Part shown: positions 30,157 through 32,461 of the stretch, piece after piece
Numbering within the stretch: position 1 is the first letter of the stretch
Layout: each line of letters opens with the position of its first letter
Origin: Neodothiora populina
Lineage: Eukaryota
DNA length: 64,000 nt
Direction: 5' to 3'
Assembly: GCF_041146345.1 (NCBI RefSeq)
Contig: NW_027191408.1
Coordinates: 930,001 to 994,000 of the forward strand
The notes under the pieces: model-generated
What the model saw: only the letters and a program-made list of their open reading frames with translations
Told to the model about the DNA's origin: nothing
Database searches by the model: none
Made by a program: the position numbers and the translations under genes

Positions 30157-32461
30157 TTACTTCGTAGGAATTGCATCAGCGGACACGCCAGCCTCATCGC
30201 GAGGAATGGAGATGCTAGAGCTTCGATTGGTGCGAGCTGCATTCATTTCCTCCTCGAGGCCCTTGAGCTTACCCAAGCGGGCGGTAGGTAGCCACTTCTC
30301 TTCAGGGGTAAACCACCAGGTCAAGACTGCGAAGATGGTGATGCTACCAAAAATGACAGGAGAGTAGTTGAAGTTTTCGCCAGTGACCGGGAACTCGAGT
30401 GGCGAGAACAGAACGGCAGCAAGAAACAGGTTCCAGACCATGGCAATGAAGTTCATGGGAAGAGACCAACGTCCTAGAGACCAGCTTGCTGACTTGAACT
30501 CGTTGGGAGTGACAAACACTCTTCCGAAACAGATAAGGGCGTAGGACATGATGGTAGGCACACCGGCAGCACTGACAAGCGAGGCGAAAGCCACGGGGGA
30601 AGGCAAGATCGTACAGAGCAGCAGCGCTGACACAGTGAGCATGACAGTGACAGCGTTGTTGGGCATCTTCTGATCATTGACTTTGCTGATCCAGCCGGAG
30701 AAAGGAAGGACACCGTCGCGCGCTACTGCCCAGATCAGGCGGGACGATGCCACTCCTGCTACTGTGGTGTTGAAGATGAGGCCGAGGATGCAGATAATCG
30801 TCATGAAGACATGACCTCCCTGGCCCATAGACATCGCGTAGATGCTGATGAATGGCTGTGGTGCGGCAAGATTATAGATAACGTCCAAGTCAGGCATGCA
30901 GAAGAGGAAAAGAATAACAACTGGGAATCCAAGCACAGCAGAGGTGACTGCTGACGAGAAAATGCCGCGAGCCGCTGTCGTGCTTGCATTCTGAGTCTCC
31001 TCGCTGATGTGTCCGCTAGCTTCGAAACCGACCAGTACACCGGCTGTCACATAGTATGAGAGCATCCAGTTCCATACCGGTGGGGCTCCAGTCTCGTTAT
31101 AGGTCTGAGTGAAAACAAACTCGGCAGATTGGAAGCCATACGACTTGGACACCGCGATAGGTAGCCAGATGATGTTAAGGAAGAAGTCAAGCATGATGAG
31201 TCCACTCGCAATACGAAAGATCAGCTTGTAATGCTTGGGGTTCAGATAGTTCATTCCGATGGAGATGAAGAGCATTGCTTCGGCAACTATCCATTGCACT
31301 GCTCTGAACTTGACATCGTTTACGTCGGTAGTAAAGTCAACGCCAAACACTGTTAATTCGGAGAGCAGGTAGTTGGCAGCACCTTGGGAGTTGGAGGCGA
31401 CGAATGTGGTCCATGCTGTAGTGGCCCACCATGCAACGATGAATCCAAAGAGTCGACCAAATTTGCGACCACCGGACTCGGCCGCCCAGAAATAGATGGA
31501 ACCTGCAGCGGGTAGTGCAGAGCAGATTTCGGCCAGGACTGCAGCAGTAATGAAGACGAAGATGCACGTAATGACGTAGCTCGACCTTGTTGGGGGTCAG
31601 CATCTGAGATCACAATAACACTGATTGGGCATGTTGCAATTTAGAGCACAATAGAGCTCAGGAACATGTCTATGTGCACCCCGGGAATACCCTCGCGTAT
31701 GGCTTGAGAGTGCATCATCAACAGAGACTTACCAGTACGCAGCTGGTCCGCCAGCGCCAACACCGATGGAGAAGGTCACACGAATACCTCCAACGAAGTA
31801 GAGTGCGGCTGGAAAAATCAGTATGCGAAGCTCGCAAAACGAATAAGGTCAGGCAAATTCAAAATACCGAAACTGGCCGCGAAGCTTTCAAAGAACTTCC
31901 ATTGCCGATGCAAAGACTACATTGTATCAGTATTGGCATTCTGAAATGCTCAATTAAGCGCACTCACTTGTTTGTAACCGAGTGCGTTCTGCACTGTGTC
32001 AATAAATTAATCAATCACAGGAAAGGGAGAAATCAAGAAAGGTCGATAATTCAGTCATGGCATCTCCTTCCGCGCTCATGAAAGCGATCAAGTTCAAGCG
32101 GTACTCTCTCAGCCCTTGCCATGGCATCGAATCTTCTTCTCAAAAAACTCGATGCCTAGCTCAGACGCCCGCGTGCAATGACTGTTGTTGGTTGTCGTAT
32201 TTTGCTGTTCTTGTTTGGATCTTTCATGGCCTACTTACCAGGTGCCATCGATTGAGCGCGTTGGAAGGATGTTTTGCTTGCCGGTAACGAAAATCGCCAT
32301 TTCGGGATCCCTTTTCATGTCGCCCTTACCAAGTAGCGCTCGTCTGAATCCATGCTGGATGTCTCCTCGAAGTTGCTTTGCAGCTGGTTTGTGGGCTTGA
32401 CTGCATTGTCGATGTCCACACCACTGGCGCGCGCTGTGCCGGAACGGAGCTTGGTCTGCAT
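30157..32461 (-). CDS. APC-superfamily permease (GABA/choline permease-like), probable thiamine or precursor transporter (Thi9-like); exons 32461-32330, 31988-31968, 31916-31868, 31808-31733, 31585-30157; 568 aa
   Basis: Spliced product has DERYL|NALGYKQ|SLHR, GGPAAYW, LAEICSALPAAGSIYFW, GFEASGHISEET and SRLIWAVARDGVLPFS. The substrate is inferred from the intronic TPP aptamer. Confidence 0.9.
32052..32184 (-). promoter_or_regulatory. TPP riboswitch aptamer in intron 1 of the permease
   Basis: Minus strand shows P1 CAGTCATTGCA/TGCCATGACTG, P2 GCGG/CCGC, a long P3 extension GGCATCGAGTTTTTT/AGAAGATTCGATGCC, J3/2 GGCTGAGA, TTGAACTTGAT, P5 CGCTT-TCAT-GAGCG and CGGAAGG. All conserved TPP core elements are present in order. 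Confidence 0.93.

Follow-up and report, generated by a model that had tools for sequence, protein, structure and literature searches.

A predicted thiamine pyrophosphate riboswitch of a known kind, with a co-varying anti-aptamer strand, in the first coding intron of a THI9-type permease gene of Neodothiora populina

We analyzed a 64,000-nucleotide (nt) stretch of the Neodothiora populina genome (RefSeq assembly GCF_041146345.1, contig NW_027191408.1, positions 930,001 to 994,000), hereafter the window, in whose coordinates all positions are given. On its minus strand, the first coding intron of a permease gene contains a thiamine pyrophosphate (TPP) aptamer preceded by two alternative 5' splice sites, a distal donor (S1) and a proximal donor (S2), and, judged from its sequence, the intron is a TPP riboswitch of an already known kind, here from a newly sequenced fungus. 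Just upstream of S2 lies a pyrimidine-rich strand, segment (a), that is complementary to the 3' half of the aptamer; comparison with related introns indicates that it is a real, conserved anti-aptamer that co-varies with the aptamer. Our preferred reading, to which we assign a probability of about 0.6, is that the intron is an NMT1-like or "Type III" riboswitch of a THI9-type permease gene, in which (a) would serve as the anti-aptamer and TPP would repress expression. An earlier note, made from the letters of this stretch, had described (a) together with two further segments, (b) just downstream of S2 and (c) shortly after S1, and had proposed a hybrid of donor masking and long-range pairing. 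The strings and positions it gave for the three segments, for their targets (32078-32061 for (a); 32089-32077, in P5/L5, for (b) and (c)), and for a small hairpin around S2 are exact, and the aptamer, S1, and S2 that it placed in the intron are all there.

The host gene is, by sequence, an orthologue of the THI9-type thiamine permeases of the APC family, the names being those of the source entries. Further exons follow the micro-exon that adjoins the intron, and the large downstream exon matches the APC-family permease domain PF13520 (E 2.6e-50). The window protein is 100% identical to a deposited entry labelled Neodothiora populina, a Dothideomycete, and orthologues at 57 to 59% protein identity carry the source label "thiamine transporter thi9". 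In the deposited protein P0001, exon 1 is spliced from S1 to the micro-exon, in frame, exactly as read from the window, while an exon extended to S2 reaches a TGA after 12 nt and would stop prematurely. Two donors upstream of the aptamer, with a productive frame from the distal one only, are what the NMT1-like and "Type III" layouts have. An aptamer in intron 1 of a Thi9-type APC permease orthologue is likewise the arrangement of the THI9-associated group, named TPPsw-AA in a later survey (PMC11683625).

Relatives of the intron came from a protein-guided scan of metagenome contigs, which yielded 80 loci. A pattern of aptamer core plus LGYK micro-exon is matched by 47 of them, in all of which the same micro-exon lies 3' of the aptamer. 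The 33 loci left out, some of them without upstream DNA, include seven with looser motif matches (L011, L074, and L076-L080) and five with a variant aptamer (see below). After nine aptamer loci without S1 were dropped, 39 introns with S1 remained, the window included; removal of 13 introns that were more than 93% identical gave a non-redundant set of 26, i.e., the window and 25 relatives, to which the counts below refer. The layout is largely shared in this set: S1 and S2 are separated by an in-frame stop in 25 of the 26 introns, and the +5G/+6T consensus is found at S2 in 22 introns and at S1 in none. Because MAFFT alignments (of whole introns and of the part from the anti-aptamer to the aptamer end) lose the register of the anti-aptamer between clades, co-variation was judged by per-sequence duplexes, shuffles, and a partner swap. 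In locus L033 (4203-4753), the intron is 551 nt long and carries, between S2 and the aptamer, an insertion of about 200 nt with many internal repeats; the spacing of anti-aptamer and aptamer is therefore not fixed.

The aptamer itself looks intact from its sequence. The RF00059 model matches 32182-32047 over its full length (model positions 1-105) with 41.7 bits (E 1.4e-6), and the model alignment places the whole core (CUGAGA junction, P2 ACC, P4/P5 strand GAAC-UGAUC, and GCG-AAGGA) in the window. CTGAGA, ACCG, ACTTGA, GCG, and AAG are invariant in all 26 introns, and the closing P1 forms when the aptamer is folded alone.

Segment (a) can pair with its aptamer target in two runs of 7 bp plus 4 bp at CATC/GATG. 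The S1-S2 stretch of the window reaches -23.0 kcal/mol when set against the L5-P5-P4 3' strand (z -4.1; none of 300 dinucleotide shuffles as good), and with the whole aptamer 3' half as target it gives z -3.7, with 1 of 200 dinucleotide shuffles as good. Of the 12,794 windows of 30 nt in the 64-kb sequence, 14 are as good as (a) in this pairing, trivial opposite-strand copies included. A strand at the proximal donor that is complementary to P4-P5 is, again, what the NMT1-like and "Type III" layouts have; since (a) takes up the P5 3'/P4 3' strand, it cannot pair there while the aptamer is in its ligand-binding fold. The relatives agree in position: the best duplex of the S1-S2 stretch with the aptamer 3' half sits just before or over S2 in 26 of 26 introns, overlapping S2 in 7 and ending at most 5 nt from it in 5 more. 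It is as good in at most 5 of 200 shuffles in 16 introns, and with the P5/P4 3' strand alone as target, 12 introns reach 7 of 300 shuffles or fewer. (The 200-shuffle tests against the 3' half used earlier choices of S2 for loci L034 and L040, and the duplex analysis onward used revised ones.) The weaker 5' extension of (a), which faces the P1 3' shoulder, adds nothing beyond chance in the window (-11.8 kcal/mol, z -0.8, 63 of 300 shuffles), and, among the 26 introns, complementarity to that shoulder reaches significance in only 3 at 7 of 300 shuffles or fewer and in 4 at 15 of 300 or fewer.

Co-variation, which the earlier note had asked for in all three segments, is seen for (a). When each anti-aptamer is paired with its own aptamer, the duplex energies sum to -651 kcal/mol, compared with -566 +/- 16 kcal/mol for swapped partners, and none of 5,000 permutations is as low, a figure that is not a true probability, as the orthologues are related, and that comes from duplexes fitted per sequence, which lean towards pairs. 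Individual changes point the same way. TGAGCGC/GCGCTCA is replaced by TATGCGC/GCGCATA in four introns, and a G-C pair at the GCG-N-AAGG position by T-A in six, each a compensatory double change; in locus L034, the P1 3' strand is unique and its partner matches it, so that both strands of this P1 3' contact are changed. For (b), one such change was found, in the closest relative, where (c) has none (see below).

Folding without ligand also pairs the aptamer 3' half with the intron upstream of it, at a mean probability above 0.5 in 20 of the 26 introns. The state with the aptamer forced is less stable by a median of 13 kcal/mol across the set (-110.5 free versus -99.4 forced for the window fold). 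The comparison of folds with and without the aptamer, which the earlier note had suggested, is in line with the competing pairing; it shows no consistent change at S2 and no pairing of (c) with L5, as set out below.

Three groups of observations on the aptamer and its partner strand stand apart from this comparison. (i) Loci L015, L016, L023, L031, and L043 have a variant aptamer about 250 to 450 nt upstream of the protein match, in which CTGAGA is replaced by TTGAGA and CTTGATC by CTTGGGC, and P2 is altered on both strands (CGCCGG with ACGGC). They are close relatives (79 to 81% protein identity for four, 75% for L016) and keep the donors, an anti-aptamer-like strand, and the micro-exon; RF00059 gives no match to these five aptamers at E <= 0.01. 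(ii) In a more distant clade (L045, L053, L070, and L071), in which the micro-exon ends in LGYKP, the S1-S2 stretch contains a conserved AAGTTAATCATTCGTGTACA-like block, part of which is, by eye, complementary to GATTGTAC of the aptamer J3-2/P2 region; this clade gives a weak anti-aptamer signal (z -1.2 to +0.4). (iii) A GGCGAT(C)-like motif 25 to 40 nt after S1 (32299-32293 in the window) recurs in L020, L033, L037, and L039. Its complement is GATCGC in the P4/P5 5' strand, a match that is significant in only 2 of 26 introns at 7 of 300 shuffles or fewer and in 3 at 15 of 300 or fewer; when the window is folded, the partner of the motif is, instead, ATCGACC on the 3' side of the aptamer.

The way in which these parts would work together is modelled on NMT1, a validated riboswitch, and on the "Type III" layout in the literature. 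When TPP is low, the anti-aptamer would hold the aptamer 3' half, and S2 would be occluded, either directly, as in the 7 of 26 relatives in which the helix overlaps it, or, in the window, within a three-way junction that has (a) and (b) on its flanks; S1 would then be spliced to the micro-exon to give the full-length permease. At high TPP, the aptamer would close and release (a), and the stronger and nearer S2 would win, giving an mRNA with a premature stop. We propose that thiamine uptake would therefore be repressed by TPP.

Several results weigh against this NMT1-like reading, in addition to the two cautions attached to the partner swap. Because of a 44-nt insertion in P3, the window aptamer does not reach the RF00059 gathering threshold (54.3 bits), and there is no match at gathering. 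Of 20 orthologous aptamers tested, 19 are also below the gathering score, the sole one at it being that of locus L034, which has a short P3 (59 bits). In ten of the 26 introns, the shuffle test against the aptamer 3' half gives no significant anti-aptamer. The end of (a) is 14 nt upstream of S2 in the window, where S2 pairs with the aptamer with a probability of 0.00. The calculated cost of opening the 9-nt S2 site of the window is 1.9 kcal/mol if the aptamer is not folded and 2.4 kcal/mol if it is forced; across the 26 introns, forcing the aptamer lowers this cost in 9 and raises it in 15 (Wilcoxon p 0.52). With no consistent shift, the modelled accessibility does not support a simple unmasking of S2. 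Of the NMT1-like clamp in the earlier note, the conserved and co-varying strand is supported. Thermodynamic folding does not model steric occlusion. As S2 is not consistently unmasked, and in the window does not pair with the aptamer, occlusion may be steric or topological; in the topological option, S2 would lie in a loop, and the long helix closing this loop would also bring S1 near the 3' splice site.

That option leads to the first alternative, a looping mechanism like that of NCU01977, which we consider possible but unlikely. Here a helix would join roughly the first 80 nt of the intron to the region running from the P5 3' strand to the polypyrimidine tract and would act mainly by bringing S1 beside the branch site and the 3' splice site, with S2 enclosed rather than occluded. 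Ligand-free folds of the window and of its closest relative, locus L002, do contain such a helix: intron nt 3 to 37, approximately, zip to the tract after the aptamer and nt 38 to 78 to the aptamer 3' half, with probabilities of 0.8 to 0.99. The geometry resembles that reported for NCU01977: there are 38 nt from S1 to the start of the pairing strand and about 60 nt from the end of its target to the 3' splice site. Li and Breaker discuss both proximity and loop sequestration, and the unchanged accessibility of S2 makes a topological effect a natural alternative. However, the pairing of the post-S1 stretch with the polypyrimidine tract, although predicted by folding, does not exceed what shuffling gives (29 of 200 shuffles as good in the window; a single intron among the 26 at 5 of 200 or fewer). 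The pairing of the P1 3' shoulder, significant in the three to four introns counted above and not in the window, also argues against it, and because it is not significant, the alpha/alpha' contact that defines NCU01977 is not demonstrated in the window.

A two-way toggle particular to this species is a doubtful explanation. On this account, the same (a) that favors S1 without TPP would, once freed by TPP, fold onto S1 and block it. The region around S1 and (a) (32341-32323 with 32269-32254) can form 15 bp (-20.9 kcal/mol, z -3.6, none of 300 shuffles as good) that use exon GAGCGC, junction TTGG, and donor AAGGG, with 8 of the 9 donor positions from -3 to +6 paired. This duplex is contained in the forced-aptamer fold of the window, in which opening S1 costs 8.1 kcal/mol, compared with 3.3 without the aptamer fold. 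Against the toggle, the pairing is not conserved (1 of 26 introns at 7 of 300 shuffles or fewer, 3 at 15 of 300 or fewer, median z -0.1); in L002, 21 of 300 shuffles are as good and the duplex misses the donor. The exon part is, moreover, constrained by Glu-Arg codons, and the match may be a coincidence. It is rather improbable that (a) sets both sites, clamping S2 without TPP and shutting S1 (15 bp, -3 to +7) with it; if true, a single element would set both splice sites, a mechanism that, in this lineage at least, neither the NMT1 nor the NCU01977 model covers.

The hybrid of the earlier note, in which S2 would be clamped by (a) and (b) and S1 would be drawn towards the branch site by pairing of (c) with P5/L5, is very improbable. 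Segment (b) has something in its favor: its core, CATGAAAG, is an exact 8-mer complement of L5 CTTTCATG, with a pairing probability of about 0.5 to 0.7 in the ligand-free ensemble of the window, and in L002 its equivalent is CATTAAAG and L5 is CTTTAATG, a single compensatory change in an otherwise diverged stretch. Its energy is ordinary, however. Against L5 alone, z is -1.1 and 45 of 300 shuffles are as good (an apparent 0 of 200 came from a target that ran into that of (a)), and 11% of 25,590 genomic windows pair as well with the L5 target. A complement of P4 5'/L5 after S2 is not general either: it reaches 7 of 300 shuffles or fewer in 3 of 26 introns and 15 of 300 or fewer in 5, namely, L007, L009, L042, L065, and L028, which belong to two other clades, and it is significant neither in the window nor in L002 (50 of 300). 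In the 7 introns with the duplex running over S2 itself, no separate (b) is needed for that reason. There is thus modest support for (b) as a lineage-specific addition, apparently kept only in the closest relative.

For (c), the balance is worse. It shares CATGAAA with (b), and only 1.2% of the 25,590 25-nt genomic windows pair with the L5 target as well as it does. The pairing is nevertheless within chance by shuffling (z -1.7, 14 of 200; z -0.4, 91 of 300), and a significant complement of L5 after S1 occurs in only one (200 shuffles) or two (300 shuffles) of the 26 introns. In L002, where L5 changed and (b) followed, the position of (c) did not. The two segments need the same L5 bases and compete, and in the ligand-free ensemble (c) pairs with the polypyrimidine tract, its pairing probability with L5 being 0. 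CATGA of (c) holds an in-frame TGA of a conserved type, nearly all relatives having such a stop close after S1, and from its sequence (c) is best read as chance plus a stop codon. Nor is (c) supported as a long-range link like that of NCU01977, to which the earlier note had likened it: the alpha element there pairs with the P1 3' shoulder and not with P5/L5 (Li and Breaker 2013, PMC3597705), and the transporter family is a different one. The idea of combining masking and long-range pairing is in itself not new, as masking of the proximal donor by P4-P5 beside alpha-alpha' was already suggested for NCU01977 (Li and Breaker 2013, PMC3597705). The small hairpin around S2 is present as the earlier note described it, and its arms recur in L002; its stability is unremarkable (-6.5 kcal/mol, z -0.71, with 45 of 200 shuffles folding as well). 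Least probable of all is that the aptamer is a decayed relic in an intron spliced constitutively from S1, for which its score below the gathering threshold and a suggestion in the Discussion of PMC8786325 that THI9-type riboswitches might have lost function can be cited, but against which stand the invariant core, a low score explained by the P3 insertion, the co-varying anti-aptamer, and the conservation of S2 and the stop.

Among the nearest known systems are NMT1 and THI4 of Neurospora crassa, where P4-P5 blocks the proximal donor until TPP binds (Li and Breaker 2013, PMC3597705). Shared with them are the intronic aptamer with distal and proximal 5' splice sites and the strand by the proximal site that is complementary to P4-P5; its release by TPP and the resulting repression are predicted here. 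Unlike in NMT1 and THI4, the intron of the window lies between coding exons, and its non-productive isoform would have a premature stop rather than upstream open reading frames; S2, moreover, is not paired with the aptamer and sits in the small hairpin between (a) and (b). According to Mukherjee (2018, PMC5882874), "Type III" denotes an internal intron of 200 to 400 nt that has two donors, S1 and S2, separated by a stop; the internal 341-nt intron of the window has all of these, its stop is in frame, and its 3' splice site follows just after the aptamer. The same paper describes riboswitches of amino acid transporter genes as widespread in Basidiomycota and absent from Ascomycota, in contrast to the present one in a Dothideomycete. 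TPP riboswitches of THI9 orthologues, however, have been recorded in Pezizomycotina, including the Dothideomycete S. nodorum, and remain to be experimentally characterized, as stated by Donovan (2018, PMC5997356), who cites Moldovan (2018) for the record; as in that group, the host here is an APC permease related to S. pombe Thi9. NCU01977 is similar in that the intron lies in a coding region, with a pairing strand less than 60 nt after S1 and a target about 60 nt before the 3' splice site, and in that the productive S1 is favored without TPP, as is predicted for the window. It differs in its gene, classed with urea/DUR31 transporters (the host here is a PF13520 permease), in its intron of 550 to 900 nt with several alternative donors (compared with 341 nt and one consensus alternative donor), and in the contact of alpha with the P1 3' shoulder, which is not significant in the window.

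The features are listed in Table 1. A further observation concerns the 3' end of the intron, where a hairpin (32002-31974; AGTGC/GCACT inside TGAC/GTTA; -8.7 kcal/mol) encloses the putative branch site, the AG of the 3' splice site, and the start of the micro-exon. Its middle pair is changed on both sides in L020 (AGAGC/GCTCT), is G-U in L002 and L005, and is broken in L026; the L053/L070/L071 clade has a different hairpin across the 3' splice site.

Table 1. Features of the permease gene and its first coding intron in the window
Feature	Position	Strand	Remarks
Exon 1, permease gene	32330..32461	-	ATG at 32461; 44 codons, ending ...DERYL; N-terminus of deposited protein P0001
Intron 1 (first coding intron), 341 nt	32329-31989	-	Holds the TPP aptamer
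Distal donor S1, GTAAGG	32324..32329	-	Gives the in-frame product; non-consensus at +6
Segment (c), CATGAAAAGGGATC	32306..32319	-	Starts 10 nt after S1
First in-frame stop (TGA) on exon extension to S2	32315..32317	-	Inside segment (c)
Anti-aptamer strand	32253..32291	-	Core is segment (a), 32271-32253; weaker 5' extension (GGCA, GTTA, TTC) faces the P1 3' shoulder
Small hairpin ATGGC/GCCAT carrying S2	32226..32248	-	Arms also in L002
Proximal donor S2, GTAAGT, consensus	GT at 32238-32237	-	91 nt downstream of S1
Segment (b), CATGAAAGATC	32218..32228	-	Complementary to L5
TPP aptamer	32047..32182	-	RF00059; long P3 hairpin at 32156-32123
Aptamer 3' half (P4 5', P5, L5, P5 3', P4 3', P1 3')	32050..32089	-	Target of (a), (b), and (c)
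Putative branch site, TTGAC	31998..32002	-	Inferred from sequence; TGCTAAC or TTGAC at the same place in orthologues
3' splice site, AG	31989..31990	-	
Micro-exon 2, 21 nt, NALGYKQ	31968..31988	-	Same micro-exon in P0001

For riboswitch specialists, the intron is a useful example rather than a surprise. The Rfam threshold misses nearly all of the THI9-type aptamers tested (1 of 20 reaches it), and, because long P3 insertions push these aptamers below the gathering score, routine annotation would miss this riboswitch group. In combining a weak S1 with a consensus S2, an intervening stop, and, by S2, an anti-aptamer that co-varies, the window and its 25 non-redundant relatives offer a testable platform for these permease genes, in which (a) would be the first segment worth mutating, (b) the second, and (c) not one of them.

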